Source: an uncultured Nitrososphaerota archaeon (lineage in GTDB: Archaea; Thermoproteota; Nitrososphaeria; Nitrososphaerales; CADDZS01). From it: a stretch of DNA of 64,000 bases. Both the position numbers and the translations under genes were made by a program. Shown piece after piece: positions 34,201-57,807 of this stretch (its first letter is position 1; each line of letters starts with the position of its first letter). Location: positions 1,280,001 to 1,344,000 of the forward strand of contig CAWCYI010000006.1 in assembly GCA_963799845.1 (NCBI GenBank). The letters run 5' to 3'. The notes under the pieces were generated by a model. The model made no database searches. It was given only the letters and a program-made list of their open reading frames with translations, and was not told the DNA's origin.

Positions 34201-34202
34201 GA

Positions 34203-36922: not shown

Positions 36923-38068
36923 CTATTTAGACATAGTACTATGGCTTTGAGGTGATTCCATGACGGGTCTCTTCTGCTTTTGAAGCAATCTTACAGGATT
37001 TTCAACTAATGAGGAAATCGTCTCCTTGCTTGGTTCATCGTAGTTTGAGCAATGCATATGGACTACCTTCCAGCCTTGATTGGTTCGCTGGAAGATACAA
37101 GTCGACCTGTTTGATCTTTTATGATGATTTGCGGGAAAGTCGACATCGAATAACATTACAAAAGTGGCGTAAGCTACGTCTCCGTGAACGTGTACTTCGA
37201 GATCCTTCAAGCTTCGATTCTTCTTGAAAGAGGTTTGCTTTTCAAAATAACTTCGGGATTGTAATTCATCCCGACCAAGAGAGGGGAATATTGGTTCATC
37301 TGAATAACAGCTGAATTCTTTGCTGTGCAGCGATGTAGAGAAAGAATGGAAGTCCCTATTGTTGAGTCCTTCGATCAGGGTGAAGACAAGTTCACGAATT
37401 TCTTCCCGTTTAGTCGATCTTGTTCTCTTTTTTGTATTTCTTTTCCCATCGGAGCTCGGATACAGTCTCTGTAATTCTCTAACCCCCATTCCAGAGCTAA
37501 CGACTAATTTGGCGGTGTTCCATCTATCCTCGGCATCTTCAATCCTATTCAGAATTCTAGCATGATTTTCGGTGAGAAGTGACAAAACTCTCAATTGTTC
37601 GTCTCTTGGAGCAACTGAGTCAGAGAACAAATGAAGCATAGCGACGTGTTGTGACACAAACGCACGGGATCTACCGATGAGATCGCCTAATTGATCATAA
37701 CTGCTTCCAGTGGTTTTGTGCAACTTGTCCAAGATTAGTGCTTTTTCGTAATCCGTGAATCCTTTCCTGTCGACATTTTCTGAAAACGCCATCATTAACG
37801 CTTCAGAATCTGAAGCTTCTACAATGTTCGCATTTATCGACTTCCATCCCAATTTTTTGGCGGCTGATAATCTTCGGTATCCAAATATTAACTCAAATTC
37901 GAACGAAGTCGACTTGGAAGGCCTCACGAGGATGGGCGCAAGCTGTCCAAGCTTTGACAAGGATGTGTATAGATCGTCTGCTTCCGATTCGCTTTCAACT
38001 CGACTTTCTAAGAATGGACGTATAGATTCGACAGGAACCTCTAACATTACTTGTTTTTTGCGAGTCAA
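36923..38068 (-). CDS. ParB CTPase-fold and HTH protein fused to a C-terminal SnoaL/NTF2-like domain
   Basis: LGQLAPILVRP, FGYRRLSAA, ENVDRKGFTDYEKA and HTH YDQLGDLIGRSRAFVSQH. C-terminal EIRELV...LNNRD...DLEVHVHGDVAYATF...RSTCIFQRTNQGWKVVHMHCS is a SnoaL_3/DUF4440-like pattern. Alternative start ATG 38047. Confidence 0.85.
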   Translation of the reverse strand: MTRKKQVMLEVPVESIRPFLESRVESESEADDLYTSLSKLGQLAPILVRPSKSTSFEFELIFGYRRLSAAKKLGWKSINANIVEASDSEALMMAFSENVDRKGFTDYEKALILDKLHKTTGSSYDQLGDLIGRSRAFVSQHVAMLHLFSDSVAPRDEQLRVLSLLTENHARILNRIEDAEDRWNTAKLVVSSGMGVRELQRLYPSSDGKRNTKKRTRSTKREEIRELVFTLIEGLNNRDFHSFSTSLHSKEFSCYSDEPIFPSLGRDELQSRSYFEKQTSFKKNRSLKDLEVHVHGDVAYATFVMLFDVDFPANHHKRSNRSTCIFQRTNQGWKVVHMHCSNYDEPSKETISSLVENPVRLLQKQKRPVMESPQSHSTMSK

Positions 38069-38087
38069 TGCTTTTATTTATGTTGAT

Positions 38088-38105
38088 TGTTCACGCGCGT
38101 GAACA
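38088..38105. promoter_or_regulatory. Perfect 18-bp palindrome TGTTCACGCGCGTGAACA (parS-like operator)
   Basis: Read directly from the sequence. It lies in the divergent promoter, 20 nt upstream of the ParB-SnoaL ORF and next to its TATA-like A/T tract (38072-38081). Confidence 0.7.
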
Positions 38106-38265
38106 TGTATACTCTAATGGAATGTTCTCAAGTGTAAGATTAGATCTGATAACATGCTAAAGATTGACAATTATTTTCATCTTTATTTTATAACACAATC
38201 GATAGGAGCATTTTGCAATTCTTATCTAAATTCGTTTCCGTTTCGTGACTAGGGAGTTCATCCGT

Positions 38266-39393
38266 ATGAAGATCAAAGAGGTTGAGGCAGTTGGAGTAGA
38301 ATGCAAGCTGGAGGGATTTATGCATCCTACTCGCAGATATCTATTGGCAAAAATTACCACTGACGACGGTCTTGTCGGATGGGGTCAATGTGGAACAACA
38401 GGAGCTCCAGAAGTAGCTCTAATGTTGCTTAACCGGCTCAGACCTTTACTAATCGGAGAAGATCCCTTCGACAGGCCGAAAATCTGGGAGAGTTGGCTAA
38501 ATTCTCCGCTTGCTACTCTATCAGAAGGACACAAGGGTGCAGAATCATTTGCAATTAGCGGCGTCGATATTGCTCTTTGGGATATACTAGGAAAGGCTTG
38601 CAACAAGCCCATTCACAAACTTATTGGCGGATTCCGTGATAAAATTCGGTTGTACGCAAGTCATGGTGATCCGGATAATTTTCAACTTTATCTCGACTAT
38701 GGATTCACAGGATTCAAAATTGGCATATCTCATCCTGGCATATTTCCAGGAAAAGTTGGAACTGCCGCTGAACTAGATGTCACGCTAAAGCAGCTAAGGG
38801 ACATAATTGGTTATAAGAATGATCTGATGGTAGACGCTTGGCAGGGATTCTCACTATCCGAGGCAATTCGAGTTGCAAAGGTCCTTGAAAAATACGAAAT
38901 TACATGGTTTGAGGAGCCTATCTTGTCTTATGATTTCGATGGTCTAGCAATCATTTCTCGAAGTACGACAGTTCCAATAGCTGCTGGGGAGCACCAATAC
39001 ATGAACAGAGAAGCTGCTGACCTGATTTTAAAGAGCGGGATTCAGCTAGTCCAGTGCGATCCTGTCAGCTGCGGTGGAATCTCAGAATCGTACAAGATTG
39101 CTTCTATAGCTCAATCAAGGGGAGTAAAATACCAGCCTCATTGCACTGAAACCCCTCTGAATTTTGCAGCTGTAATGCAAGTCATGGCTTCTACGCCTAA
39201 TTCGTTTCTCGCGGAGTGGCAGGTAGGTCATGGAATGGGAGTCAAGTATGGAGAAGAGCTTCCTCTCCGATGGGAATTAATCAAACAACCATTTTCGGTT
39301 CGAAATGGGTGGGTAGACGTTCCCAAAGGACCTGGTCTAGGAATTGAGATTGACGAAAAGGCACTAAGAAAATTTGAATGGAAGATTTTCTAG
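38266..39393 (+). CDS. Mandelate racemase/muconate-lactonizing (enolase superfamily) enzyme
   Basis: AISGVDIALWDILGKA, FKIG, metal ligands LMVDA/WFEEP/AAGE, PHC and PKGPGLGIE. Confidence 0.9.
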   Translation: MKIKEVEAVGVECKLEGFMHPTRRYLLAKITTDDGLVGWGQCGTTGAPEVALMLLNRLRPLLIGEDPFDRPKIWESWLNSPLATLSEGHKGAESFAISGVDIALWDILGKACNKPIHKLIGGFRDKIRLYASHGDPDNFQLYLDYGFTGFKIGISHPGIFPGKVGTAAELDVTLKQLRDIIGYKNDLMVDAWQGFSLSEAIRVAKVLEKYEITWFEEPILSYDFDGLAIISRSTTVPIAAGEHQYMNREAADLILKSGIQLVQCDPVSCGGISESYKIASIAQSRGVKYQPHCTETPLNFAAVMQVMASTPNSFLAEWQVGHGMGVKYGEELPLRWELIKQPFSVRNGWVDVPKGPGLGIEIDEKALRKFEWKIF

Positions 39394-39546
39394 GCAATCT
39401 GTTTATGAAGTATAAAGAAGAATCAAACTAATGATCTCAATTACATTTCTGAGTTTATTCACTTTTTTTGGAGGCAAGGTCGATCCAGAATAGACCTCGC
39501 TCCGAATTTTTTGTAAACCAAAAGTTTTCCGTGAGGGTTAGAGAAG

Positions 39547-41010
39547 TTGAAAACAAATTTCAAGTTCCGAATGTATGAGAAGCTTCAGAAGGAATATCCC
39601 GAGATAATTTCCGAAGCAAAGAGGGTGCCGGAGGAAATTGGAATGCCAGATTCTTTGAAAGGTAAGATAGGGCTTACTGGAGCAATTTCAGGCATGCCTC
39701 GTGTCCTCGGCAAGGATGTTAGAGATGCGATAGAAGTTGCGCATCGGCAACCCATGCCGTTAAGCGGTCTCGTCGACCAAATCCGGGAGTTGGTTAAGGG
39801 TTTTTACGGAGATGAATATGACGCAGTCCCGGCGAATACCTGCGAATCGGCACTCTGTCTATCTTTTGATGTACTTGCTGCTCCGCCAATGCAAGGCAGG
39901 GGAGATAACTATCGAACTAGATACGTTACACTTTACGAGAAGCATCTCTTCCATCAGGGAGCTTACGGGAGACCATTCCCTCCCAAATACAAGGATGTTT
40001 TTTCGGACGCGGGAGTAACTTCAGGAGAATTTTCTTCCGCAGGAAAGAGACTAAACAATCTCGATACAGTGGTTGTTCCGCTGATCGGAGCAAGATATGA
40101 TGTACATGGGATAAAGTATTGCCCCACTATGTTATTAGAAAATGTTGACGCTAAAGCCTCCGCAGAAAAGATCGCAGAAGTGGCAGATAGAAATTCAGCT
40201 TTCGTTTCCGCATTTTCTACTCTTACGATGGATACGCCGGGTTACGGACGGAGAGAGAAAGACAGCGCGGGCGCCTCGATCCTCGAGAAGATGATAAGCA
40301 AAGTCGCCCAAAGGTATGATGTTCCTTACATTACTGATAATGCAACTGGACTGCCCTTCATTGGTAACGATTTGAGAAAGACCGATTGTGACCTGATGCT
40401 ATACAGTATGGACAAGGACGCTCTGAGTCCGACGAGCGGATTGATCATCGGAAAAGAGGAGTATATGGTGCCTCTTCGTAAGGCAATGGGTTTCCACAGT
40501 AATCGTTACGGGACAATCTCTGCGTATGGTAAAGCCGCATATTCTTCATTCGATCCTGGGAAGACCGGCCTCGTGGGGCAAATTGCAGCCCTGAAGGCTC
40601 TCAGAGACAAGCGTTCGCTAATAATTAGGTGGACCGATAAAGTGTACGAGATAACTATGGAAGAATTTGCCAAGATTAATCCCAAACTTGGAAAGGGAAT
40701 CGAGGTTACAAAATCTTACAATTTTGGCGGAGTCGAAGTTAACTATGCAAAAACTTGGATAGACGGAGAAATTGGGATACCAATGTTCAGCAGCGAAGAC
40801 ATCTTCGCTGGCGTAGATCCTTTATTCAACGGGTTTTTGGAGATGGGAATAGGACCGACACCTGTTTCGAGCGGAAATTTTGTCGTAATGCCCGGGTTTG
40901 GAACCCTTGACGACACGTATGGTCTATTGGAGGAAAATATGAGATACGCCTTAAAAGCTATGGTTAAGATGCTTGAAATTATCAGCAAGCATGCGGGCAC
41001 GTTGGACTAG
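39547..41010 (+). CDS. Uncharacterised fold-type I PLP-dependent protein (SelA-like)
   Basis: YITDNA (PLP Asp) and YSMDK-x4-PTSGLIIGK resemble the SelA-family PLP-Lys motif. Confidence 0.6.
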   Translation: MKTNFKFRMYEKLQKEYPEIISEAKRVPEEIGMPDSLKGKIGLTGAISGMPRVLGKDVRDAIEVAHRQPMPLSGLVDQIRELVKGFYGDEYDAVPANTCESALCLSFDVLAAPPMQGRGDNYRTRYVTLYEKHLFHQGAYGRPFPPKYKDVFSDAGVTSGEFSSAGKRLNNLDTVVVPLIGARYDVHGIKYCPTMLLENVDAKASAEKIAEVADRNSAFVSAFSTLTMDTPGYGRREKDSAGASILEKMISKVAQRYDVPYITDNATGLPFIGNDLRKTDCDLMLYSMDKDALSPTSGLIIGKEEYMVPLRKAMGFHSNRYGTISAYGKAAYSSFDPGKTGLVGQIAALKALRDKRSLIIRWTDKVYEITMEEFAKINPKLGKGIEVTKSYNFGGVEVNYAKTWIDGEIGIPMFSSEDIFAGVDPLFNGFLEMGIGPTPVSSGNFVVMPGFGTLDDTYGLLEENMRYALKAMVKMLEIISKHAGTLD

Positions 41011-41090
41011 GTAAATCAACTTCGAATAGATGAAAGATTAGCGAATATATGATATCGAACGTAAAGTCATTTTCATTCTCTCTTCTAACC

Positions 41091-42299
41091 TTAATGCATT
41101 TCATCATAAGGAGATCGTGTCAATCTTTCATAGCCATTATCTGTAACTAGAAGAGTATCACTTAGAAACACACCTCCGACTTCCGAAGCGTGGAACCCCA
41201 CTTGAACGGCGAGAACCATCCCTTTTTGTAATGGAGTCGTATCCTTCTCTATTATCTGAGGTCTTTCGTTTATTTCTACACCGATACCGTGGCCAAACCC
41301 GTAATCAATCTTTAAGGATCCAGCTTTCAAGTCGCGACAGATTTCAGTTGTGTCCCTTGCAAGGGAGGAAGCTGTAATCCCGGGCTTTACCTTTTCCAAC
41401 ATTCTAGAATAGATTTTGATTGCGGTCTTGTTTAGATTTGATTGCTTTTCATTTGCCTCTCCGACTACTAGCGTCCTTCCGATCTGTGACCAATATTTCC
41501 AATTTTCGAACGCCATCAGAAGCAGTACGGGATCACCTTTTTTCAAGACCCGACCGGGCATTCCTAAAGATCTCTGAGCATCGGGGCCGCTTGCAATCAA
41601 GGATCTGAAATTATGAGCTCCTATTGTTCTAGTGGCAGCGTCTATATCGGAAAGAACATCCGACTCCGTCTTTCCTTCTTGGATTGAACTTTTGAATGTT
41701 TGAAATGCCGCATCAGAAATTTGACTTGCTTTCTTGATTAGGTGCACTTCCGCTTCGCTTTTTACCATCCTCTGATTCTCAATAATGTCTGTCGCATCTT
41801 CGAAAGAGACATTAGGAAGTTCACGCTTGAGGGTTACGTAAGAGCCTGCGTCCATCCAGCCCGCACCTACAAGACCTACTTTTCCAGAAGTCAGGTTCAA
41901 GCCGTCCAACACTCTCCTAACATTTGGACCCAAGTCATATGTACCCATCACTCGGAATTCCAAAGATCTGACGTCCCTGATCCAGGTCGAAGCTCGAACC
42001 TCCCATCCAAAGTCTCGAGGAATCCAACAACCAAGTAATGTTGGATCTCCTTCTCGAGGGATTATGAGTCCAATCGACCTGTTGTAGCAAACGTTAGCGT
42101 TTGCAAGATAAAGCACATTGCCGTTCTTCCACGACCCATCAGCTCTGCCGAATACAAGTAGCGCATCGATTCCTCTTCGACCCATTTCCTTCTTCGATCG
42201 TGAAACGCGATCCCTGAATTCCTCGATGGGCATTTCAAGAGCGTTCCATCCCCACGGTCCGGTTGAATAGCCGCCAAACAGCGGGCGTAGTGAAAGCAT
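41091..42299 (-). CDS. M24 (creatinase/Xaa-Pro peptidase fold) protein lacking most metal ligands
   Basis: Creatinase_N-like start, RMVKSEAEV, IGRT, GHGIG, ERP and LLVTDNGYERLT. Confidence 0.82.
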   Translation of the reverse strand: MLSLRPLFGGYSTGPWGWNALEMPIEEFRDRVSRSKKEMGRRGIDALLVFGRADGSWKNGNVLYLANANVCYNRSIGLIIPREGDPTLLGCWIPRDFGWEVRASTWIRDVRSLEFRVMGTYDLGPNVRRVLDGLNLTSGKVGLVGAGWMDAGSYVTLKRELPNVSFEDATDIIENQRMVKSEAEVHLIKKASQISDAAFQTFKSSIQEGKTESDVLSDIDAATRTIGAHNFRSLIASGPDAQRSLGMPGRVLKKGDPVLLLMAFENWKYWSQIGRTLVVGEANEKQSNLNKTAIKIYSRMLEKVKPGITASSLARDTTEICRDLKAGSLKIDYGFGHGIGVEINERPQIIEKDTTPLQKGMVLAVQVGFHASEVGGVFLSDTLLVTDNGYERLTRSPYDEMH

Positions 42300-42304
42300 T
42301 CAAA

Positions 42305-43453
42305 TCACTCCCTAACTTCTCGTTCCGTCGAATACAGTTTGTAGGGCATCTTGGTTAGGCGTTCGTAACCATTCTCCGTTACGAGAAATGGTTCGCCTAG
42401 AGCCAAATAACCTGTGTCTGGAAAATAGTTATTCGGATGAAGTGTGAAAACCATACCCTCTGCCAATGTCGTCTTATTGCCGACTAATATTTCCATTCCC
42501 CCTACATCTCCATGCCCTCGCACACGCGAATTTGGGGGGCGAAGGTTCTCCCAAAACCCAGCTGAGGCCAATACGTCCTCCTGGGCAATCGCTAGAGCCT
42601 CAACCGGGAGTCCAGGCTTTATCATTGCCACAGCTTTTTCAAAGGCTTTTGTCAATAAATCAAATCTCGTTCTAACGATCTCTGATGCCTTGCCTACTAC
42701 CACGGTTCGACATATTTCTACAAACAAGCCATCGTAAAGGGGATTCGGCTCCATTACGATGATGTCCCCTTCTTTGATGGTTCTGCCCGTAGGAGAGGTC
42801 ATGGAGGTTGGGCGTGCACCAGAACCAATCAAAGTAGCAGCGTCATCTGCACCCATGCGTCGCATCGCGACCTGGGTCGCAGCCTGGAGTTCTAAATCTG
42901 TCACATTCGGTCTAATTGCATCCAATAGAGCTTGAAATCCAGCCTCAGCAATCTCAGCAGCTTTTAGGTAGCGCTCCATTTCCATTTTGCTCTTTGGAAA
43001 AAGAACATCTCTTGCAATATCAGTGCAGGGCTCGATCTTGGTATTTGGCAGCACCTTATGCCGATCTTCAAAGGAGTCGGCATACAGAAATTCTTCGCCC
43101 GTCATTCCTATTTTTTGTTCTAGAAGGCCATCCCGTCGCAAGATTTCCTTGCAATCTTCCCAAAGCTTGGTCGTCACTCTCACATCCTTTATCCACGATT
43201 TCTCTTTCGCTCTGTCTAAATCCCATGCTTCAGAAATTAATAGAACGGGGGCACCGCTTTTCGGAAGTATGACCATTGAATAATTTCCAAGCATGTCATA
43301 ATTCGAAATCCAGTAGACAGTATCAAAGTTGGTGTTACTCCAAATATGACCAGTTAGAGGGTAGGAATAAATTAACAAGACATCGAGCTTTCTCTTGTCC
43401 ATCAGACTAGTGATCTTAGATCTCCGCCATTCGAACTCGTTCAAATTATTCAT
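42305..43453 (-). CDS. M24-fold protein with atypical ligand set
   Basis: KSKMEME, MEPNPLYDGLFVEICRT, RGHG, FTLHPN and LVTENGYERLT. Confidence 0.82.
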   Translation of the reverse strand: MNNLNEFEWRRSKITSLMDKRKLDVLLIYSYPLTGHIWSNTNFDTVYWISNYDMLGNYSMVILPKSGAPVLLISEAWDLDRAKEKSWIKDVRVTTKLWEDCKEILRRDGLLEQKIGMTGEEFLYADSFEDRHKVLPNTKIEPCTDIARDVLFPKSKMEMERYLKAAEIAEAGFQALLDAIRPNVTDLELQAATQVAMRRMGADDAATLIGSGARPTSMTSPTGRTIKEGDIIVMEPNPLYDGLFVEICRTVVVGKASEIVRTRFDLLTKAFEKAVAMIKPGLPVEALAIAQEDVLASAGFWENLRPPNSRVRGHGDVGGMEILVGNKTTLAEGMVFTLHPNNYFPDTGYLALGEPFLVTENGYERLTKMPYKLYSTEREVRE

Positions 43454-43574
43454 TCAGAGCCCGTAACGACGCGCGTTCCTTCAGTTCTTAAATAATTCTC
43501 GAAAAAAGTAACAGGGCAATAATATTTACTTAAAATCGGCGGTGGCAGAGGAAATTCTCGTTACTTGGGTCAGT

Positions 43575-44069
43575 TCAAGTTTTTCCTAACCTCTTCTTTA
43601 ATAGTGGCATAATTCCTCCAGCTTCAAGAACATTGAGCATCACTGATGAGAGAGGCTTACTTTCCGATTGTTGACCGCTACTTAGGTTCTTGATAGTCCC
43701 CGTTGCAGGATCGATCTCGCCCTGATCTCCGTCATTGAAAAGTTTAGCAACTTCGGGGCAAATCACGATAGGTAGTCCTATCGCAATGCAGTTTCTAAAA
43801 AATATCCGTCCGGTGGACTCGGCAAGGATTCCACTAATCCCAAGCGCCTTAATGTTCTCAGGAGCAATTTCTCTGCTCGATCCGCATCCAAAATTTCTTC
43901 CCGCGACGATTAGATCGCCCGGTCTAACATTTTCAGGAAACTCAGGTCGAACTGATTTTAAGCAATACTTTTTGAATTCATTCGTAGGGAGTCCAACATA
44001 TATCCCAGGTGCCATCGCGTCAGTATCGATATTGTCTCCGAATTTCCATACTCTGCCACTAATTTGCAC
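43575..44069 (-). CDS. leuD: Isopropylmalate isomerase/maleate hydratase-family small subunit
   Basis: KFGDNIDTD, NFGCGSSRE and RIFFRNC. Confidence 0.92.
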   Translation of the reverse strand: MQISGRVWKFGDNIDTDAMAPGIYVGLPTNEFKKYCLKSVRPEFPENVRPGDLIVAGRNFGCGSSREIAPENIKALGISGILAESTGRIFFRNCIAIGLPIVICPEVAKLFNDGDQGEIDPATGTIKNLSSGQQSESKPLSSVMLNVLEAGGIMPLLKKRLGKT

Positions 44070-45336
44070 GAAGGTACTCCCTCGGATCTGTGATTCTCCC
44101 TCTTATTGATGAAGCAGCAACGGTTGCAGGAGAAGCAAGGTATACTTCAGCCTCAGGACTTCCCATCCTGCCCTTGAAGTTCCTGTTTGAAGACGAGATG
44201 CATTTTTCTCCGGGTGCCAATACACCGTTGCAGCCACCCATGCACGGACCGCAAGATGAGTTGGTGACTACTGCACCGCTTTCGACAAAGATTTTGAGAA
44301 GCCCTTCGTCCATAGCTTTTAGATAAACATCCCATGAAGCGGGCGTAACGATCAAGCGAGTGCTTGAAGAGACTTTGTGGCCTTTCAATACTCTGGCAGC
44401 CGCCTCCAGATCCTCGTATCTTGCATTTGCACACGAACCAATGAAGGCTTGATCTACTGGGGTTCCTTGCAGCTCAGAAACGGGTTTTGAGTTGGCCAGT
44501 GAATGGGGCGCAGCTACGTACGGCTCCAAGTCGGAGACATCAACCGAGAACTTCGAATCGTAAGTTGCATCCTTGTCACTCTTCACGGGCTCAAATCGAT
44601 GGGTGGTTCTAGTGCTCAAATAATCTAGTATTTTGTCGTCAACCTCGAAGAGCCCAAATTTTGCACCTAACTCGATTGACATATTGCTCATAACCATTCT
44701 ACTCGCGAGTGTCATCTCGCCGACGCAAGGACCTCCCCATTCTATTGACTTGTATTGCGCCAACTCTATTCCATACCTCCCCGCGATGTACAAAATCAGG
44801 TCTTTAGAATAGACCGAATCTGGAAACTTTCCGGTGATATGAATCTTCACTGTACTAGGTACGGTAAACCACAACTCGCCAGTGGAGAGCACGTACGCCA
44901 TTTCCGAGTTTCCAATTCCCGCACCCGCAGCATTTAGAGCGCCATAGGTACAAGTGTGCGAGTCCGCTCCCAGAATCAAGCTTCCAGGAAGGACGTGACC
45001 CTTTTCCGTCAAAACTTGATGACAAATGCCAGCGTTAATATCGTAAAAGTGCCTGATTCCGTATCTTTCTGCCAATTTCCGCAGTATAGCGTGATAGTTT
45101 GCGGTAGTAACAGTGGGTGCAGCGGACCAATGGTCCAAAACCACGACGACTTTTTCAGGATCCCAGACTGATGGCAGGCCTTCGGGTAGTCCCTCTTTGA
45201 TAAGGGTTTGATGCATCATTGCAAAACCTTCGTGAATCATGACCAGGTCCACTTTGGCGGTCAAATGATCCCCTGGAGAAACATGTTTTTCTCCCGAAGC
45301 CCGCGCGAGAATTTTCTCGGCAATCGTCATGCTCAT
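44059..45336 (-). CDS. leuC: Isopropylmalate isomerase/homoaconitase-family large subunit
   Basis: MTIAEKIL, DH, GICHQ, DSHT, [4Fe-4S] ligands IGSC and CGPCMG, NRNFKGRMG. Confidence 0.93.
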   Translation of the reverse strand: MSMTIAEKILARASGEKHVSPGDHLTAKVDLVMIHEGFAMMHQTLIKEGLPEGLPSVWDPEKVVVVLDHWSAAPTVTTANYHAILRKLAERYGIRHFYDINAGICHQVLTEKGHVLPGSLILGADSHTCTYGALNAAGAGIGNSEMAYVLSTGELWFTVPSTVKIHITGKFPDSVYSKDLILYIAGRYGIELAQYKSIEWGGPCVGEMTLASRMVMSNMSIELGAKFGLFEVDDKILDYLSTRTTHRFEPVKSDKDATYDSKFSVDVSDLEPYVAAPHSLANSKPVSELQGTPVDQAFIGSCANARYEDLEAAARVLKGHKVSSSTRLIVTPASWDVYLKAMDEGLLKIFVESGAVVTNSSCGPCMGGCNGVLAPGEKCISSSNRNFKGRMGSPEAEVYLASPATVAASSIRGRITDPREYLRAN

Positions 45337-45371
45337 GAAGATATCATGGTCCCCGAAAAAATTCGATAATC

Positions 45372-46499
45372 CTACACAACTAGTTCTGGAAATTTAATCT
45401 TTTGGGCGATCGCATCTCCGAACTCCTTCGTACTCGATGTTCCTCCCAGATCATAGGTCCTGATTTTCCCTTCTTTTAGGACCGCGGCAAGCGAATCCTC
45501 GATGAGACGCCCTCCTGAGGACAATTTTTCATCGCTGTATTTTTCTCCCATCCAATCCAACATCATAGAAGAAGAGAGTATCATTGAACAGGGATCGGCT
45601 ACATTTTTGCCGGCGTATTTTGGAGCAGATCCGTGAATGGCTTCAAAATAGGCATAGTTGTCCCCGATATTGGCGGCTCCTGCTAGTCCCAGGGAACCCT
45701 GAATCGCGCCGGCGAGATCTGTGATAATATCGCCGAAGACATTGGTCGTGACACAAACGTTGAAGAACTCTGGTTTTCGGATGACCCACTGCGTCCATGC
45801 GTCAATGTAAGCGTAGTCTTTCTCGATGTCAGGATATTTAGGCGCTATCTCATCGTAGATGTCTCTGAATAATCGGCAACCCAAGAGCACGTTGCTCTTG
45901 TCTATGCAGGTGACTCTTTTCTTGCCGTCAGAAGGAGCACCACGCTTTCTGCGCGTTGCCAACTTGAAAGCGTGATCAATTACTCTTTCAGAGCCTTTTC
46001 TCGTGATGACCCTGACGTCAACACTCATTTCCGTGTTACCGCCTCGAGTTATCGACCCCCTAATCGGCAGATATAGATCCTCTGTATTTTCTCTTACAAT
46101 AACAAAATCAATGTCTCCGACTTTTCTACCCACCAAGGGTGAGCTGACACCTTCGTATAATTTGCACGGCCTGATATTTGCGTATGTGTCCAGGTCGAAT
46201 CTTAAACCTAGAACTACTTCACCAATAGCTTCTCTGCCGTCGGGCAGGTTTGCTCCTGGCCAGCCCATCGGACCCTTTAGAATCGCGTTTGCATGCTTAC
46301 ATGTGTTAAGTGAACCTTCAGGCCACGAGGTTTTCTTTCCAGAATCTAGAAAATATTTTCCGCCGCTGGGTATCTTTATGAATTCAAAATTCAACCCCTC
46401 AATTTCTTCCACGGCTTTTAGGACTTTTACTGCCTCGGGTATGGTATCCCAGGCTATCCCGTCTCCTTCCAATATGGCTATTTCATACGTTCTTACCAA
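45372..46499 (-). CDS. Beta-decarboxylating dehydrogenase (isopropylmalate/tartrate/D-malate dehydrogenase family)
   Basis: GDGI, LRFDLDTYANIRP, VRENTEDLY, DKSNV, NVFGDIITD and EAIHGSAP. Confidence 0.9.
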   Translation of the reverse strand: MVRTYEIAILEGDGIAWDTIPEAVKVLKAVEEIEGLNFEFIKIPSGGKYFLDSGKKTSWPEGSLNTCKHANAILKGPMGWPGANLPDGREAIGEVVLGLRFDLDTYANIRPCKLYEGVSSPLVGRKVGDIDFVIVRENTEDLYLPIRGSITRGGNTEMSVDVRVITRKGSERVIDHAFKLATRRKRGAPSDGKKRVTCIDKSNVLLGCRLFRDIYDEIAPKYPDIEKDYAYIDAWTQWVIRKPEFFNVCVTTNVFGDIITDLAGAIQGSLGLAGAANIGDNYAYFEAIHGSAPKYAGKNVADPCSMILSSSMMLDWMGEKYSDEKLSSGGRLIEDSLAAVLKEGKIRTYDLGGTSSTKEFGDAIAQKIKFPELVV

Positions 46500-46637
46500 A
46501 GGGGTATTCAGACGAGTGGATCATTCTGTGGGATTTATGAATAACTGGACATGAACTAGTTTCTCAAAAATTTTCAATCAATAAAACTGATCTTATTCAA
46601 TAACGATATATCGGCAGAGTCGGCGGCCTAGCAATCT

Positions 46638-47993
46638 ATGTCAAGCCAAACGGAAACCGTGGCCTCATTTGTTGCCAGCCTTGATTACAAAAATATTCCA
46701 ACGAATATCGTGAATAATCTAAAGGCATCCATACTGGACACCCTTGGCAGTGGTATTTACGGATCCACGCTATCCTGGGTTAGATCTTTTTCAGATCTGG
46801 TCATGAATTGGAAAGGAAATGGTGAGGCAAGCGTCTGGGGGCGAGGTAGGAAATTACCTTCAATGAATGCTGCTTTCATAAACGGAACAATGGCCCATGC
46901 ATTCGAGCTAGACGATGCTCATAGAAATAGTGTAACTCATCCAGGCACAGTCGTTATTCCGGCCGTTCTCGCTATGGCAGAGTTGAAGGGAAATGTCGAT
47001 GGAAAAACATTCCTTACGGCGGTAACAGCCGGTTACGAAGTTATGTGCAGGGTAGGAATAGCTTTGGGTGTTTCTCACAGGCTTCGAGGATTTCATCCAA
47101 CTGGGACTTGTGGCGTATTCGGAAGCGCTTCTGGAGCCGCGAAAATCCTAGGATTAGACGAAGAAAGAACAATTTGTGCTTTATCGATAGCCGGCACGGA
47201 GGCATCTGGTCTATACAACCCTTCACTGGTAAAGAGATTGAATGCTGGAAGGGCGGCACAGACAGGAATCATGGCGGCACTGCTGGCTCAGTCGGGTCTT
47301 AGTGGCACGAAAGATGTCTTGGAAGCACCGCACGGAGGATTTTGCAGGGGTTTTTCTGACAACCCCGACATCGGGAGGCTGGTAACCGATTTAGGAAAGT
47401 CATTCGAGGCAGGCAACGTGTCACTGAAACCATATTCGTGTGATGCAGGAAATTGTAGAACTATAGACGCGGTAAAAAAGGCGATCGAGGGGCACGAAAT
47501 CGCTCCAGAATCAATAGAAAAAATTGTAGTCAAAACAAGCACTCAAAACAAAGAATTCAGCTATGGCTTCAAAGTAGACAGCGTTTCTTCGGCAATGATG
47601 AGTCTGCCTTATTGCGTTGCAGTTTTTCTCATTGAGAAGAATGCCTTTCTTGACCAATTCACTGAGAAGAAAATCCGCGATTCGAATATACTTAGTCTCT
47701 CTAAGAGGGTAGAGGTAATGGCGGATCCGGAAATTGACCGTCAAATGATGTCAGACCCAACTCGCCCAGTGAACGTTCATGTCGAAATTAAGTTGACTGA
47801 TGGAAAAAGTTTCAGCAGTAGTGTAATGCATTCCAAGGGAAGCCCGATGAACCCGATGTCCCCTCGAGAAATCAGAGACAAATTTACGAAACTGGCATCG
47901 TACGTCCTCGACAAAAACAAGATAGAGTTCATTATTTCGACTGTAGAAGACCTCGAAGAACTTAGTTGTGTTGACCAAATCGTTCCAGAATGA
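46638..47993 (+). CDS. MmgE/PrpD-family protein
   Basis: AAFINGTMAHAFELDDAH, HPG, GYEV, GFHPTG, KPYSC and KGSPMNPM. Confidence 0.9.
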   Translation: MSSQTETVASFVASLDYKNIPTNIVNNLKASILDTLGSGIYGSTLSWVRSFSDLVMNWKGNGEASVWGRGRKLPSMNAAFINGTMAHAFELDDAHRNSVTHPGTVVIPAVLAMAELKGNVDGKTFLTAVTAGYEVMCRVGIALGVSHRLRGFHPTGTCGVFGSASGAAKILGLDEERTICALSIAGTEASGLYNPSLVKRLNAGRAAQTGIMAALLAQSGLSGTKDVLEAPHGGFCRGFSDNPDIGRLVTDLGKSFEAGNVSLKPYSCDAGNCRTIDAVKKAIEGHEIAPESIEKIVVKTSTQNKEFSYGFKVDSVSSAMMSLPYCVAVFLIEKNAFLDQFTEKKIRDSNILSLSKRVEVMADPEIDRQMMSDPTRPVNVHVEIKLTDGKSFSSSVMHSKGSPMNPMSPREIRDKFTKLASYVLDKNKIEFIISTVEDLEELSCVDQIVPE

Positions 47994-48028
47994 CTTTATT
48001 TTTTCAAACTGGGGAAGTGGATCGTTTT

Positions 48029-49410
48029 TCAGTTTTTTTCGATAATCAGTTCAGTAATATCAGTGATTCTTTCAATAGATTCAAGATGATTTATCAATTT
48101 CAAAATCTCTTCGCTTTGCATACCGGTAGTGTTTTCTTGAAACTTTGATGTCAGTTCATTCGTACTTAGCGGATTGTTGGGACCCCCGATAGCCTGATCC
48201 ACCCTCGAGCTTACTGAATTCCCGTCTCGAAAGGTTATTGATACCTCAGCTGGAGAATATGGGATTCCATCCATTTGTCGATCCGCTTCAACATGAATCG
48301 TTTTTGCCAGTTCAAGTACTGGCCTTCTTCGGATTGCAGAATCAGAAAAACTCTGAATCGACATATTGCCATCGATCAAGATTGTCGAGATGCAGAAGTA
48401 AAGACTCTGTTGGGCTTCAAGGGGTGTCAATGGATTCATTCTCTGCTCCTCTGGATCGGCTACGTCCTTGAAAGTTAGACTCGGAACATGAACGGACATA
48501 GTCTCCACCATATCAGGTTCGAAATCGTATTTCCTACGTAGCTCGAGGACCGCATCGATTGAGGCATGACACCCCCGACAACATGGATATTTTTTGAAAA
48601 TAGTGTCCAGAATGGCGTAACTTTCAGCCAGCCCGTTAGTTATTATCGTGTCGTCATAATGATCGGAAAAGCTCGTAAAAATCCATCGCGACCCTCGAAA
48701 ATAGTTCTCGGTCCAGAAAGACCCCTCGCTGCTAGTTGAGCTGAAGAGATACCATCATGAGCAGCTTTTCCCGGATGTAGTCGTTTGACTGGGGACCCAT
48801 CAGCTAAGAATTCTTGAATCCCTGATGCATGACTTCCGGCTAGCCCCAGAGCATCAGCAATTTGTTCACTATCAAGACCCATAATCACAGACGCTGCAGC
48901 AGCAGCGCCAAATGGACCACATGTAGATGTAGGGTGGAAGCCACGAAAGACGTGACTACGATAAGGCTGGGGATTAACCGCCCGCGAGACACGGATCATC
49001 ACTTCATAACCAGCTACGATTGCAACAATCAAATCTCTGCCATTTGCTTGCGAGGCTTCCGCGGTGGCAATAGCGGATGGAACAATTACAGCTCCAGGAT
49101 GAAGCATTGATCTTTCGGCGTCATCATATTCCCAAGCGTGAGCAAAAGAACCATTCGCATAGGCGGCATTTTGTGGCAAAGTTTTGAAATCATTCTTATA
49201 AATAGAAGATTGCTCGGTACCGCCTAACGATCTAACATAATCTGCGATGATTTTACTCCAAGGGGCCTCTGCTCCCGCGATTGCCACGCCTATAGTGTCC
49301 ATTAAACAAAGTTTGGCTTGTTTTATTATCGGAGCTGGCAGTTTATCGTACTGGAGATCGGTAACAAATTCAGCGAGTTTCATTGAAGAGGATTTCATCG
49401 CTTGGCTCAC
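48029..49410 (-). CDS. MmgE/PrpD-family protein, frameshift at about 48668
   Basis: ORF 48643..49410 joins a downstream frame (FKKYPCC...GGPNNPLS). Motifs AHAWEYDD, HPG and GFHPT. Confidence 0.88.
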
Positions 49411-49544
49411 TTGGCTAGGCTCAAAAAATTAAGTCATATTCCTTAAGGGTCCCGGTGCCGCATAACAAAATCCAGAATCGGCAAGGCGGAATCAAAGAGG
49501 ACTTTCTTTTCGATTGTGCCCCGTGGATGAACCAACTGGGCTCT

Positions 49545-50042
49545 TCAAATAATATTTTTTTCCTGCAAACGTGAAATAAGTAGTGGAACTATGCCACCTT
49601 GATCCAACATTCGAACTAGATCAGGGGGAAGCGGCTTTGTGGATAGAGTTTTTCCAGTAGTCAGGTTCCTAATTTTACCAGTAGATATTTCAGCTTCTAT
49701 TGTGTCACCTTCATTGAATATTGAAGTCACACCCTTGCAAGGTACAGCGGGCAACCCAATTGCCATGCAGTTTCTGAAATAAATTCTGGCGATTGAATCT
49801 GCGAAAATTGCCCTAATGCCAAGCTCCTTAAGAAAGCTGCAGGCCTGCTCTCTCTGAGAACCACAGCCAAAGTTGGTGCCCGCAACTATTACATCGTTCT
49901 CCCTGACTTCTTGATAGAAATTTGGCCTTATAGCACCGAATAATGCTTTCTTGAGGTCTTTATCGGCCGTCTCAATGGGTGCAATAACGGTCGTGTCGAT
50001 ATTGTCACCGAACTTCAGAACTCTGCCCACTATTGTGCCCAA
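49545..50042 (-). CDS. leuD: LeuD-family small subunit (second copy)
   Basis: KFGDNIDT, NFGCGSQRE and ARIYFRN. Confidence 0.9.
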   Translation of the reverse strand: MGTIVGRVLKFGDNIDTTVIAPIETADKDLKKALFGAIRPNFYQEVRENDVIVAGTNFGCGSQREQACSFLKELGIRAIFADSIARIYFRNCMAIGLPAVPCKGVTSIFNEGDTIEAEISTGKIRNLTTGKTLSTKPLPPDLVRMLDQGGIVPLLISRLQEKNII

Positions 50043-51309
50043 TTACACCACATCCCTTGGATCCGTTATGACACCACGTAATGCAGAGGCAGCAACAGTT
50101 GCAGGTGAGGCTAGGTATATCTTAGCATCATAGCTACCCATTCTTCCCTTGAAATTTCTTGGTGTTGCAGCAATGCATACTTCTCCTTTAGCCAACGCGC
50201 CCGCGCTCCCTATGCATACCCCGCACCCAGGATTAGTGATAATAGCTCCAGATTTCGCAAGTTTGTAGATCAAGCCCGCGGCGAGAGCTTTCTCATAAAC
50301 TTCCGCTGATGCAGAACCGACGATGAATCTTGTTCCAGGATGTACTCTCTTTCCTTCTACTATTTGCGCAGCAATTTCCAAATCTTCAAAGCGACCGTTG
50401 GTGCAAGATCCGATTACGGCCTGATCTATAGGTACCCCTTTTATTTCAGAAATTGGTTTTACATTACCGACGGTATCTGGACAAGCTACCTGCGGTTCGA
50501 TTCCCGAAACGTCTATATCGTATTCCTCTTCGAATACTGCGCCAGAATCTGAACGCACAGGGGTAATAGGTTTTTGAACTCTTGATCTCAGAAAATCATT
50601 GGTCTTTTCATCCGCCTCGAAGAGTCCGAATTTGGCTCCAAGCTCGACAGACATATTGCTCATCGTCATTCTACTGTCAATACTCAGGCTTGTAGCAAGG
50701 GGTCCGTCCCATTCGATTGATTTGTATTGCGCCACCTCGGTACCAAATGAACCAGCAATGTGAAGCATGATATCCTTAGCGTAAACAAATGGGGAAAGCG
50801 TTCCGTTGAGCATGAACCTTATAGTTTCGGGTACTCTGAACCAAAGTTCTCCTGTTCCGAGGACGTATGCCATCTCGGTGGCTCCTATTCCCGTCCCCGC
50901 TGCGTTGAAAGCGCCATAGGTGGTAGAATGAGAATCTTTGCCAACTATCAATTGTCCAGGGGTTACATGGCCTTTCTCAGGAAGGACTTGATGGGAGATT
51001 CCTGCATCAATATCGTAAAAGTAGGTTAATCCATATTTCTTGGCTAGTTCTCGATTATTGCGATACCTTTCAGCTGCGGCTACGGAAATGGTGGGACTAC
51101 GATGATCGAGTACCACTATCACTTTGTCTTTATCCCATACGCTTGTTAGTCCCTGCTTATACCCCGCGCTGACCAGAACGTCGCTGGGCTCGTTCAAAAC
51201 CTCTGGGACCATTGCCAGATCTATCTTCAGCTGTTACGATGTCGCCAGCTTCTGCAGTCTCTTTACCCGAGCATCGCGCGAGGATTTTTTCGGCAATCGT
51301 CATTTCCAT
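50043..51309 (-). CDS. leuC: LeuC-family large subunit (second copy), frameshift at about 51228
   Basis: MEMTIAEKILAR from 51309 joins ORF 50043..51212. Motifs IGSCTN, CGVCIG and RNFKGRMG. Confidence 0.9.
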
Positions 51310-51744
51310 TTCAACAGCACCCAAATTTGCTAATAGCGTCCGACAATAATATAAGAATTCCTCGATTTTGTGGGCCTTTTACGGTAGATCCGGATAGCTA
51401 CCAAGAGCATTTCAACTATCCACCTCTAATGCTGAAAAAACTTCAGTTGATCTCGTTTAGGTTAGTTGTCAGACAAGACTTGGCTGAACAATCCGCATTG
51501 AAAAATCAGCACCCCGAATGATTAATTGAAATTTTCGAATACAACAAACATGAATGTGACGCATTGGACGACTGTGTCTCCATTGATAGGCGAAGGGAGC
51601 CTCTTCATTCGATTCAGAAAAATTCGAGTTTGGGCTCCTAGTCGTCTTAAGCCAGTAAGCTTTTCTTCAAGAGAGCCTAATAGGTTCACGTGTTAGATCG
51701 TTCGTCTTGTTCGTTTTCGAAGTGTAATCACCAGAGGATCTTCT

Positions 51745-53184
51745 ATGAGCATTAAAGATCTTAGAGATTTCATAAGAAAAGTCGATGAACTGGGAGAGCT
51801 CAGGTCCATAAATGGCGCCGACGTTATCTCCGAAGTGGGACCAATATCTTCCTTAGCTAGGATGATTGAGGGTTGTCCCGCAGTTTTGTTTGACGAAATA
51901 ATTGGGTATCCCAAGGGACACCGAGTCTTTGCGAACAACGTAAACTCTCCTAAAAGAACTGCGTTAGCGCTAGGAATAGATCCCCTTCTCTCAGACATGG
52001 GTATCTTGAGGGCTTGGAGAGAAAAGAAGAAGAATTCGAGAGAAATACCTCCTAAGTTTGTGACTGCCGCACCGTTTCTCGAGAATGTTCTTAGTTTAGG
52101 GCAAATTGATATTCTGAGATTCCCCGTCCCCAAGTGGCACGAACAGGATGGAGGCCGCTACATTGGTACAGGAGGCGTTTGTGTTCTAAGAGATCCAGAA
52201 AAAGACTGGATAAATGTTGGTATATACCGAATTCAAGTTCATGATAAAGCTACGCTTGGTCTACACTTTGATCACACAAAGCGGCATGGATACATGATCG
52301 CGCAGAAATATTGGGAAGGCGGAAAGAATTGTCCGGTTGCGGTTGCCTTTGGTGAAGATCCCGCTCTTTTCATGGCCGCCGCAGAAAAGTCTCCCTGGGG
52401 CTCATCTGAGTACTCATTAGCGGGACTGATGAAAGGTTCAAACTTCGAGGTATTTGAAAGCGATCTAACAGGTCTACCTTTACCTGCCAATTCCGAATTT
52501 GTGATCGAGGGCGAGATGCCGCCTCCTTCGAGTGATTCACGATTAGAAGGGCCATTTGGCGAGCTTACTGGTTACTATTCAAGCAGCGCTCGTGTTGCTC
52601 CCATAATCAAAGTAAAGAGGATAATGCATAGAAATGATCCAATTCTTTCAGGGAATCCGCCCCTACGTCCTCCGTATCACACAACAGGTATCCCAATAAA
52701 CGCAGGATACATCTGGGACGATATTGAGGAGGCTGGGATTCAAGCTTCTGGGGTTTGGCAACCAAGCAGAGGATTAACAGTTATTTCTCTGAAACAAATT
52801 GCAAGAGGTGAAGCTGAAAAGGCTGGCGAGATTGCATCCAAAAGTAGAGGAGCCTTTTTGGACAGAGTGATTGTGATCGTTGACGAAGATATAGATCCCA
52901 CCAGTCTCCAGGATCTGGCTTGGGCTTTGAGTACAAGATGTGAAGCATCCACAGGAATTAAGATCCTAACGGGTCTACCGTGCAGTACTCTAGACCCACT
53001 AATTTCTCCTGATAGAGTTGCGAAAGGCGACTTCTTTCATTCTAAAGCTATCATAAACGCGTGCAAACCATTCGAGTGGAAAGATAATTTTCCCGAACCT
53101 GTAAGGCTCGATGATAAAACTCGCAAGAGGATTTCTGACAAGTGGTTACGCGATCTGATGTCGAAGAATAAGCCTAACAACTGA
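51745..53184 (+). CDS. ubiD: UbiD-family (de)carboxylase, third paralog
   Basis: DLRDFI, DGGRYIGT, NVGIYRIQ, EGPFGELTGYY, VDEDIDP and INACKPF. Confidence 0.92.
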   Translation: MSIKDLRDFIRKVDELGELRSINGADVISEVGPISSLARMIEGCPAVLFDEIIGYPKGHRVFANNVNSPKRTALALGIDPLLSDMGILRAWREKKKNSREIPPKFVTAAPFLENVLSLGQIDILRFPVPKWHEQDGGRYIGTGGVCVLRDPEKDWINVGIYRIQVHDKATLGLHFDHTKRHGYMIAQKYWEGGKNCPVAVAFGEDPALFMAAAEKSPWGSSEYSLAGLMKGSNFEVFESDLTGLPLPANSEFVIEGEMPPPSSDSRLEGPFGELTGYYSSSARVAPIIKVKRIMHRNDPILSGNPPLRPPYHTTGIPINAGYIWDDIEEAGIQASGVWQPSRGLTVISLKQIARGEAEKAGEIASKSRGAFLDRVIVIVDEDIDPTSLQDLAWALSTRCEASTGIKILTGLPCSTLDPLISPDRVAKGDFFHSKAIINACKPFEWKDNFPEPVRLDDKTRKRISDKWLRDLMSKNKPNN

Positions 53185-53218
53185 GCTTATCTGAATCAGT
53201 CTTAAATATTCAATTTCA

Positions 53219-53827
53219 ATGTCGAATGTTCCAGTGATTGTTTTGGATCCGAGAAAGACCGCGTTGCTTGTTGTTGATATGCAGAAGGGCATTTTGAGCA
53301 AGACCGGTAGCGCGCATCTAATGCAGACTCAGAAAATAATCCCCGGGCTCAGGAAAATCATAGACCTTTGTCGGAAACAAGGAGTTATGATCATCTTCAG
53401 CAGACACAGCAACGAGTTTGCGAATCAGGTCTATAGGGAACTGAGACCTTACTTCTTCAATCAAGACGGCTCACCAATGGTTTCTAAGAAAAGTGAATTC
53501 TTTCAAGTTATAGATGATTTAGGTGCCAACACTGATGATATTTTTATTGACAAAGACCGGTCCAGTCCATTTTACCAAACTCATCTAGAGACGATTCTTA
53601 GAACTCGCAAGATTGAGAACGTAGTGATCGCGGGCGTCGCGACGAACGTGTGTTGCGAGGCTGCCGCACGAGATGCGTACTACCGGGATTTCAGAGTTTA
53701 CATGATAGAAGATTGTTGCACGGCTCTCAGCGAAGAATTTCACAACGTTTCTATAAAGACTATTAGGGAATACTTTGGCTTTATCATATCATCAACAGAG
53801 TTCTCTGAGTCAATTAGTAACATCTAA
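53219..53827 (+). CDS. Isochorismatase-family cysteine hydrolase (maleamate amidohydrolase/ureidomalonase-like)
   Basis: ALLVVDMQ (Asp), DKDRSSPF (Lys) and GVATNVCC (Cys). Confidence 0.9.
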   Translation: MSNVPVIVLDPRKTALLVVDMQKGILSKTGSAHLMQTQKIIPGLRKIIDLCRKQGVMIIFSRHSNEFANQVYRELRPYFFNQDGSPMVSKKSEFFQVIDDLGANTDDIFIDKDRSSPFYQTHLETILRTRKIENVVIAGVATNVCCEAAARDAYYRDFRVYMIEDCCTALSEEFHNVSIKTIREYFGFIISSTEFSESISNI

Positions 53828-53932
53828 TCCTAAATGACTTTCCATTTTTTACCAAATATTTTTGGGAGCTGGGCTCTCGCTATTGCATGATATTCCGCGC
53901 AATAATAATCTTGATTTTTGGTATTAACTTGA

Positions 53933-55965: not shown

Positions 55966-55980
55966 TAATCTGTCACAATC

Positions 55981-56832: not shown

Positions 56833-56852
56833 AAGTCGATCTCCTGACTTTG

Positions 56853-57776: not shown

Positions 57777-57807
57777 GTCCGGAGCTTAGTCCGAAGTTTT
57801 TCGAATC

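Follow-up and report, generated by a model that had tools for sequence, protein, structure and literature searches.

A 64,000-nucleotide stretch of an uncultured Nitrososphaerota soil archaeon (contig CAWCYI010000006.1 of assembly GCA_963799845.1, positions 1,280,001 to 1,344,000; referred to here as the window) contains a minus-strand gene coding for a protein with a ParB N-terminal domain, a ParB-type helix-turn-helix (HTH) domain, and a C-terminal SnoaL_3/NTF2-like domain, and a perfect 18-bp palindrome, TGTTCACGCGCGTGAACA (site 1), 40 nt upstream of its ATG. The protein is a real, previously undescribed variant of the orphan ParB-type regulators, and its NTF2 tail, its own adjacent palindrome, and its location in a catabolic cluster make it look like a local gene regulator and not a segregation protein. 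The three-domain architecture had been proposed in an initial interpretation made without database searches (the sequence-only reading), and Pfam, an alignment of the family, and a profile search of the PDB all agree with it. The features of the locus and of related loci are collected in Table 1.

The open reading frame (ORF) spans 36923 to 38068 and would code for 381 amino acids (aa) if started at an in-frame TTG at 38068, seven residues more than the 374-aa product in the public collection, which starts at the ATG at 38047; the starts of homologues align with this ATG. Pfam positions are given in the 381-aa numbering, and named residues (G56, R314, etc.) are counted from ATG 38047. The protein matches ParB_N at residues 24 to 99 (E 7.9e-12, 45.5 bits against a cut-off of 26.3), HTH_ParB at 108 to 202 (E 3.7e-9, above the Pfam cut-off), SnoaL_3 at 224 to 341 (E 5.4e-11, 43.3 bits against 22), and CaMKII_AD at 221 to 342 (E 7.8e-11, 42.7 bits against 22.1). 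It also passes the domain-level ParB model of NCBIfam, TIGR00180 parB_part (98.8 bits; cut-off, 58.45), and is far under the cut-offs of the NCBIfam Noc, RepB, and PRTRC ParB equivalogs. An AlphaFold2 model built from 41 homologues has a mean predicted local distance difference test score (pLDDT) of 85.6 and one low-confidence stretch, at residues 202 to 209. Residues 1 to 200 of the model match Caulobacter ParB on parS (6t1f, 4.3e-13) and KorB (8qa8, 4.8e-9) in Foldseek, with further matches to Noc, Myxococcus ParB with CTPgS/CDP, and B. subtilis ParB-CDP; a sequence profile search of the PDB likewise gives 6t1f as the best solved relative (3.2e-30), together with KorB (4.2e-15). ParB_N, HTH_ParB, and SnoaL_3 occur together in 42 of the 107 listed protein clusters (E ≤ 1e-3, precomputed Pfam domains), which are 34 to 46% identical to the query and two of which are named by their source as Thaumarchaeota; 41 of the 42 (P0027 excluded) form the family alignment to which conservation refers throughout.

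Table 1. Features of the window and of loci carrying homologues (window positions unless a locus is named)
Feature	Position	Strand	Basis or remark
Site 1, TGTTCACGCGCGTGAACA (18 bp, perfectly palindromic; core TTCAC-GCGC-GTGAA), candidate cognate site	38088..38105	.	Sequence, family conservation
TATA-like tract ATAAATAAAAG (gene orientation)	38071..38081	-	Sequence; center about 29 nt upstream of ATG
ParB_N + HTH_ParB + NTF2-like protein gene	36923..38047	-	ORF, Pfam, NCBIfam, family alignment
ParB N-terminal (ParB-CTPase fold) domain, residues 17-92	37772..37999	-	Pfam, alignment columns, 6t1f alignment
Box I, GQLAPI	37931-37948	-	Sequence and 6t1f alignment
Box II, GYRR (GxRR)	37871-37882	-	Sequence and 6t1f alignment
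Box III, ENVDR (ENxxR)	37766-37780	-	Sequence and 6t1f alignment
ParB-type HTH domain, residues 101-195	37463..37747	-	Pfam, conservation
Recognition helix S-R-A-F-V-S-Q-H-V-A-M-L	37634-37669	-	Conservation, helix-versus-operator comparison
Linker, variable and low-confidence, residues about 196-216	37400..37462	-	pLDDT 47 (residues 201-210), identity 0.14
SnoaL_3/CaMKII-association-domain-like NTF2 fold, residues 217-334, predicted homodimerization domain	37046..37399	-	Pfam, Foldseek, dimer prediction
Site 2, near-copy TGTTCACGCGCGTGACACA	59916..59934	.	Between Opp-type ABC operon and luciferase-like monooxygenase gene, divergent intergenic
Gene island between sites, candidate regulated genes	38245..59605	.	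Regulation putative
Split SBP_bac_5 ORFs	57808-58521 / 58547-59605		
Split AP_endonuc_2 ORFs	61293-61844 / 61849-62187		
TTCACCCGGGTGAA site at 3' end of regulator gene	L016 7005-7026		Extends to 22-bp palindrome
TTCACCCGGGTGAA site at 3' end of regulator gene	L017 2136-2149		
TTCACCCGGGTGAA site overlapping stop codon, before next gene	L052 1452-1465		
TATGC-N4-GCATA beside gene	L024, L029, L047, L054, L064		Distant subfamily
TTCGC-GCGC-GCGAA beside gene	L026		Distant subfamily
GACAC-CCAG-GTGTC beside gene	L025		Distant subfamily
TCTGC-CCGG-GCAGA beside gene	L056		Distant subfamily
TTTGC-CCGG-GCAAA beside gene	L057		Distant subfamily
26-bp palindrome beside gene	L053		Distant subfamily
TrmB-family HTH gene directly 5', same strand, then ParB paralogue	7457-8617 with 8586-9560	+	Two-gene module
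TrmB + ParB pair	L004 2210-3067 with 1228-2112	-	Two-gene module
TrmB + ParB pair	L005 561-1352 with 1456-2361	+	Two-gene module

Site 1 lies exactly where the sequence-only reading had placed it, with a TATA-like tract adjoining it, between the palindrome and the ATG, and a divergent enolase-superfamily (MR_MLE) gene starting at 38245. With up to three mismatches allowed, TGTTCACGCGCGTGAACA is matched twice in the window against 0.04 expected, a count reached in 0 of 100 shuffles, and the 4,603,561-base genome holds a single perfect copy. The general layout of archaeal promoters suggests a promoter role for the TATA-like tract, and site 1 occupies the place in front of it where a B recognition element (BRE) is expected, so that autoregulation by the protein is probable.

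Palindromes recur beside the genes of homologues, which is what the sequence-only reading had made its proposal depend on, and they change with the recognition helix. Among 33 distinct loci (the window, L010 to L030, and 11 further loci, with duplicates removed), 10 (the window, L010, L011, L016 to L020, L044, and L052) have a perfect TTCAC-N4-GTGAA no more than 150 nt from the gene, and 10 of the distant subfamily (L024, L025, L026, L029, L047, L053, L054, L056, L057, and L064; Table 1) have another perfect palindrome of the same 5-N4-5 build beside it; a perfect palindrome of any kind lies beside the gene, upstream or just downstream, in 23. In L014 the perfect TTCAC-N4-GTGAA is 5.7 kb away from the gene, and the near-gene palindromes of L012, L014, and L030 are of other build; all eight of the perfect TTCAC sites in L010 to L030 are intergenic, and the site of L019 and L020 follows a TATA-like TTATTTAAG. 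The 10.9 kb that lie within 150 nt of gene ends contain 14 perfect palindromes with arms of 8 nt or longer, compared with 13 in 213.6 kb elsewhere at the same loci, a density of 1.28 versus 0.061 per kb and thus 21-fold higher near the gene. L018, L019, and L020 look orthologous, as do L016 and L017, and these are not independent.

In the family alignment, S127, V131, Q133, H134, A136, M137, and L138 of the recognition helix are nearly fixed. The helix sequence is [FY][VM][SA]QH[VI]AM in all nine of the TTCAC loci compared, and the SQH of L052 agrees; it is x-V-x-N-[YH] in L024 and L029 (TATGC), L026 (TTCGC), and L025 (GACAC), and the CNY of L057 (TTTGC) agrees. Such a difference between operator classes is what a cognate protein-site pair would predict, and recognition of the site, backed by this comparative evidence, presumably involves direct binding. 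The bacterial parS consensus has abutting arms ending ..TTNCAC (PMC7022226), and the likeness to parS that had been read into site 1 holds for the half-site, TGTTCAC resembling the consensus, but not for the whole site, as 4 bp separate the arms TTCAC and GTGAA of the family. A Burkholderia chromosome II parS, as given in the same source (PMC7022226), has a ..TATGC half-site that resembles the TATGC class of the family, although that parS has no spacer.

The ParB N-terminal domain retains the elements of a nucleotide pocket, in which, in the naming of a recent survey (10.1101/2025.10.10.680097), Box I is the C motif and Boxes II and III are the P motifs. G56, R59, E90, N91, and R94 are invariant in all 41 aligned sequences, and G34, Q35, P38, I39, and R58 are conserved in at least 90%, so that the GxRR (GYRR) and ENxxR (ENVDR) motifs are intact, as first read. 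In the 6t1f alignment, GVLQPILVR of Caulobacter ParB pairs with GQLSPILVR of the family (Box I), GERRWRAA with GNRRLAAA (GYRRLSAA in the window protein; Box II), and ENVQR with ENVDR (Box III). Mean pairwise identity is 0.50 in ParB_N, 0.56 in the HTH, 0.14 in the linker, whose length differs among homologues, and 0.32 in the NTF2 domain. The strictly conserved Boxes I, II, and III point to gating of DNA binding by a nucleotide, probably CTP (cytidine triphosphate), by analogy with KorB, VirB, and BisD.

No partner ParA was found. As the sequence-only reading had it, none is present in the window, with no tblastn match and no deviant Walker A motif, and AAA_31 has no match in the whole genome at E ≤ 1e-5, where, as the genome is 86.68% complete, absence means "not found." The single CbiA-family match in the genome is more than 1.18 Mb away, and its start resembles that of an Mrp/DUF59 protein. 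A scan that finds ParA-like ORFs beside all four bacterial ParB control loci (L031 to L034) finds neither a ParA-like ORF nor a deviant Walker A motif in the window or the archaeal loci (33 loci), and the ParA-binding motif [LIFVM]G[KR]G[LIFVM] is in 0 of 41 family sequences. ParB_C (PF23552) is absent from the protein, and from the genome at E ≤ 0.01, in a search whose control matched seven bacteria. Pairing with ParA, which if found at replication origins would have spoken for segregation, is not seen at the homologue loci scanned, and the neighbors of homologues are catabolic and transport genes and not replication or partition genes.

The C-terminal domain resembles the CaMKII hub, with TM scores (template modeling, to target) of 0.76 to 0.82 against hub structures in Foldseek, including 7ury (E 3.1e-8, TM 0.79) and 2f86 (TM 0.82), and among NTF2-like proteins the PDB profile search matches it to 3bb9 and 3f7s (both near 1e-7). 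Only R314, W326, H330, H332, and S334 are invariant in this domain, with F248 and T316 near-invariant. Two copies of residues 203 to 342 are predicted to form a homodimer with a score of 0.70, the best of three controls scoring 0.00; among proteins of known structure, 20 of 30 one-chain pairs attain 0.70, as does 1 of 23 single chains. At least 88% of contacts are common to the prediction runs, with a partner pLDDT of at least 76. The predicted interface is one beta-sheet face, composed of R314, T316, I318, H330, H332, W333, S334, Y293, G289, and F248, and includes four of the five invariant residues (R314, H330, H332, and S334); mean entropy is 1.36 bits for interface strand residues (n = 16) versus 2.35 bits for other strand residues (n = 36). 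The opposite, inner face of the sheet carries variable small hydrophobics (A292, A/V294, M/L296, I/L317, and F/L319), and no conserved polar residue was found on its strand positions in the 41-sequence alignment. A ParB-type clamp, or any dimer that binds a palindrome, requires a dimerization domain, and as the conserved residues fall on the predicted interface, the NTF2 domain most likely stands in for the ParB C-terminal dimerization domain. The sequence-only reading had instead cast the SnoaL/NTF2 fold as a small-ligand sensor; with four of the five invariant residues, F248, and T316 all on the predicted homodimer interface, dimerization is the simpler interpretation. Separately, a stand-alone 192-aa ORF in another genome (G000:C6:422522-422962, L008) matches only the NTF2-like domain (residues 214 to 350, E 3.9e-4) and may be related to it.

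Related sites number only two, both in the window, the second of which (site 2) is 21.8 kb from site 1. Sites 1 and 2 share 16 consecutive identical bases, including one flanking T, and 13 of the 14 core positions; chance alone would give about 0.002 exact 16-mer matches in 4.6 Mb. The 14-nt core (with the GCGC spacer) occurs with at most one mismatch only at these two sites in the whole genome, and a 2,080-nt short-read contig covers site 2 with 0 differences. Site 2 is flanked by the start of an SBP_bac_5 gene of an Opp/Dpp-type ATP-binding cassette (ABC) operon at 59605 and by the start of the luciferase-like monooxygenase gene at 60174. The island between the sites codes for the MR_MLE protein, a 487-aa ORF, two creatinase/M24 proteins, two sets of aconitase-type large and small subunits, Iso_dh, two MmgE/PrpD proteins, UbiD, an isochorismatase, and the Opp/Dpp-type ABC transporter. 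Two other accounts of the sites were considered and set aside. A genome-wide regulon or site array is not seen, as TTCAC-N4-GTGAA with perfect arms occurs six times in the genome against 4.4 expected and the core only at the two window sites; an origin of site 2 as a relic of gene duplication was dropped, since the two intergenic regions resemble each other in DNA sequence only over the 16 to 21 nt of the site, and tblastn of the protein on 59500 to 60300 gives only noise (best E, 2.1).

We lean slightly toward a reading in which an orphan ParB-type dimer, lacking ParA and joined through its NTF2 domains, binds TTCAC-N4-GTGAA and acts as a local regulator of the catabolic island. The protein would have retained the ParB HTH and the nucleotide-switch fold of its N-terminal part, with the ParB C-terminal dimerization domain swapped for a CaMKII-hub-like NTF2 domain, whose beta-sheet face would join the two chains. 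Held together in this way and flexibly linked, the predicted dimer would bind the palindrome through its two ParB-type HTH domains, with binding gated by a nucleotide, probably CTP. Through site 1 it would control its own promoter, and through site 2, with spreading as a further possibility, the genes of the catabolic island that the sites enclose; from the placement of the sites, regulation of both the island and the gene itself is probable.

Several observations weigh against this reading. By the criteria used here, 10 of the 33 loci have no near-gene palindrome, although two of these (L021 and L027) have no upstream sequence. The site lies between convergent genes in L016 and L017 and mostly just downstream of the gene in the distant subfamily, neither of which is explained by a plain promoter operator, and the start codons on the two sides of site 2 lie 311 and 240 nt from it, which does not place it obviously at a promoter. 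No second copy of the site is present within 40 kb on either side of three homologues on long contigs (G013:C2, G072:C64, and G072:C116), so the two-site bracket is peculiar to the window. The two helix types correspond to two clades, and the difference between helix and operator may therefore reflect only one or two evolutionary events. NTF2 and CaMKII-hub oligomers have been solved, and the dimer score may reflect likeness to these. Box II is GYRR in the window protein and GNRR or GHRR in relatives, rather than GERR, and motifs and AlphaFold3 do not predict nucleotide specificity, according to the survey (10.1101/2025.10.10.680097).

A more elaborate model, the full proposal of the sequence-only reading, which we consider rather unlikely, has a CTP-gated clamp that loads at the palindrome or palindromes and spreads, with the NTF2 domain sensing a pathway metabolite and coupling it to the clamp. 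Conserved Boxes I, II, and III are consistent with this, as are the two sites that bracket the 21.8-kb catabolic island and a flexible, variable linker that joins the DNA-binding part to the dimerizing C-terminal domain, as a clamp needs. The sites need not be at promoters, given their positions in L016 and L017 and in the distant subfamily, and the clamps KorB and BisD are reported to regulate at a distance (PMC11790492, PMC12409273). The NTF2 domain is also the least conserved besides the linker (0.32), and paralogues of the protein are in different metabolic clusters, which fits a diversifying ligand specificity; however, the invariant residues of the domain map to the predicted dimer interface and not to the inner sheet face, where the positions are small hydrophobics with no conserved polar residue, and the three other homologues have no second site within 40 kb. 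In the most far-reaching version, which is improbable, these would be the first archaeal nucleotide-gated ParB clamps acting as one-component metabolic regulators: the NTF2 domain would close the ring and read the metabolite, the clamp would load at a 4-bp-expanded parS-like site and slide, in the window from two sites bracketing the 21.8-kb island, and paralogues would have recognition helices and sites re-tuned for separate gene clusters.

It is also improbable that the protein is a plain dimeric HTH repressor, the ParB N-terminal domain of which no longer cycles nucleotide and only aids protein-protein contacts. One site per gene, usually at its own promoter, would suit such a repressor, the glutamate of Box II is replaced (GYRR, GNRR, and GHRR), the N-terminal NPxxxR stretch is degraded in the subfamily of the window protein, and CTP-independent ParB-like proteins are reported to exist (PMC12260392). 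Yet G56, R59, E90, N91, and R94 are invariant and Box I near-invariant in sequences only 34 to 46% identical, which argues for selection on the pocket. Least probable is a role in DNA organization, in which gene and site would form a ParB-parS module, i.e., a ParA-free centromere-like or SMC-loading/boundary element or the partition remnant of a plasmid or integrated element. A gene accompanied by a cis site, be it upstream or downstream, has the classical parB-parS layout, and such a module is compatible with the TIGR00180 score above its cut-off and with reports of ParB-like genes on thaumarchaeal integrative-conjugative elements (ICEs; PMC6563490). It is countered by the lack of ParA near 33 loci in a scan that finds it at four bacterial controls, the lack of the ParA-binding motif (0 of 41), up to six paralogues in one genome with differing sites, the lack of a site array (6 perfect-arm sites versus 4.4 expected), metabolic neighbors with integrase and replication genes absent from the 25 commonest families, a window with flat composition and no tRNA gene, and the view of the survey that a segregation role is unlikely for archaeal HTH-ParBs (10.1101/2025.10.10.680097).

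For the favored reading, that of an NTF2-joined local regulator, the closest known counterparts are KorB of plasmid RK2, VirB, and BisD, which likewise have a ParB N-terminal domain and a ParB-type HTH, are described as having a palindromic loading or operator site near regulated genes, as proposed here, and act in gene regulation and not in segregation alone. These gene-regulating ParB-fold nucleotide switches have so far been known from bacterial plasmids, virulence plasmids, and ICEs, whereas the window protein is archaeal and chromosomal and is located in a catabolic cluster, with a C-terminal NTF2/CaMKII-hub fold, no adjoining KorA-like gene, and no ParA/IncC partner. Chromosomal ParB/Spo0J has the same order of N-terminal domain and HTH, with Boxes I, II, and III; the window protein lacks two defining ParABS features (ParB_C and ParA) as well as the ParA-binding motif, and has multicopy paralogues and one or two sites, which do not look like an origin-proximal parS array. 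Noc is likewise an orphan ParB paralogue with its own palindrome, and Foldseek matches to 7ol9 and 7nfu have E values near 5e-13, but the archaeal protein scores 89.1 bits against the TIGR04285 cut-off of 315. The N-terminal extension of Noc carries a membrane-targeting helix; the window protein has no such extension, its ParB N-terminal domain beginning within the first 20 residues. With the CaMKII hub and SnoaL_3/DUF4440 NTF2-like proteins, the C-terminal domain shares profile matches and fold, and it is predicted to self-associate, but here it is fused to a DNA-binding ParB module, the prediction covered a dimer, and no enzymatic or ligand role is indicated.

Literature searches found no description of a ParB fusion to SnoaL or NTF2. 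The survey names CBS, ASCH, MT-A70, and HTH fusions in archaea, and reports that archaeal HTH-ParBs rarely have ParA, leaving the function of these ParA-less proteins open (10.1101/2025.10.10.680097). The terms SnoaL, NTF2, PF13474, DUF4440, and Nitroso are absent from its main text (10.1101/2025.10.10.680097, PMC12704722), and its supplementary domain tables may list the fusion; Thermoproteota is absent from the main text of the published version (PMC12704722). The family offers a defined archaeal test case, with a putative cognate site next to the gene, a metabolic context, and a different dimerization module, as well as natural specificity variants in which an SQH helix goes with TTCAC and an SN[YH] helix with TATGC, TTCGC, or GACAC. 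It could show whether archaea use nucleotide-gated clamps in transcription control and how a clamp of this kind copes with half-sites at a different spacing and with the exchange of its closing domain.

The named public loci with homologues are from Nitrososphaerales or Nitrososphaeria metagenome-assembled genomes. Matches at E ≤ 1e-20 are present in 16 of 151 sampled genomes of the order Nitrososphaerales (a sample that includes one unpublished genome, G102); leaving out the genome of the window, they are in 10 of 12 genomes of its own family, 4 of 4 of a second family, 1 of 24 of a third, and none of the other families. There are up to six copies per genome (G080, six matches), and on a single contig (G063:C59) two paralogues, at 9331-10389 and 16352-17377, are 6 kb apart, which together suggest lineage-specific expansion. 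In a set of 62 ORFs lying at most two genes away from 20 homologues, SBP_bac_5 is the commonest family (four), followed by Aminotran_3, AFOR_N, SDR, AA_permease, and ADH (three each) and Bac_luciferase and Peptidase_M24 (two each); SBP_bac_5, Bac_luciferase, and Peptidase_M24/Creatinase_N are found both near the window sites and beside homologues elsewhere. No integrase or replication gene is among the 25 commonest of the 68 matched neighbor families, a list that could hide single occurrences.

The genome of the window codes for three more ParB_N + HTH_ParB paralogues of 294 to 324 aa without a recognized C-terminal domain. Each of the three, one of them within the window, directly follows a TrmB-family HTH gene on the same strand (Table 1), a recurring two-gene module that recalls, in layout only, KorA/KorB and the TFIIB-ParB pairs described on thaumarchaeal ICEs (PMC6563490). 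The surroundings of the paralogue in the window (7200 to 9800) contain no perfect palindrome whose arms reach 7 nt.

Other features of the window are minor. The region from 33863 to 35696 contains small ORFs without Pfam matches and an Mrr_N-domain protein (34709-35245), and it parts two sets of metabolic genes. It is marked by neither a tRNA gene nor a G+C shift, the window as a whole being flat in G+C content and free of tRNA genes. The 487-aa ORF adjoining the MR_MLE gene (39547-41010, plus strand) has no Pfam match at E ≤ 0.001. Public soil metagenome short-read contigs are one base shorter than the window at each of 51228, 58553, and 61800, so the split SBP_bac_5 and AP_endonuc_2 ORFs probably reflect single-base assembly insertions and are not pseudogenes. 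Further ORFs are split in a class IV aminotransferase (35883-36206 / 36203-36826), an MmgE/PrpD gene (48029-48511 / 48643-49410), and a FAD oxidoreductase (62195-62632 / 62538-63737), and a Glu/Leu/Phe/Val dehydrogenase (31906-32811) is without most of its N-terminal domain.

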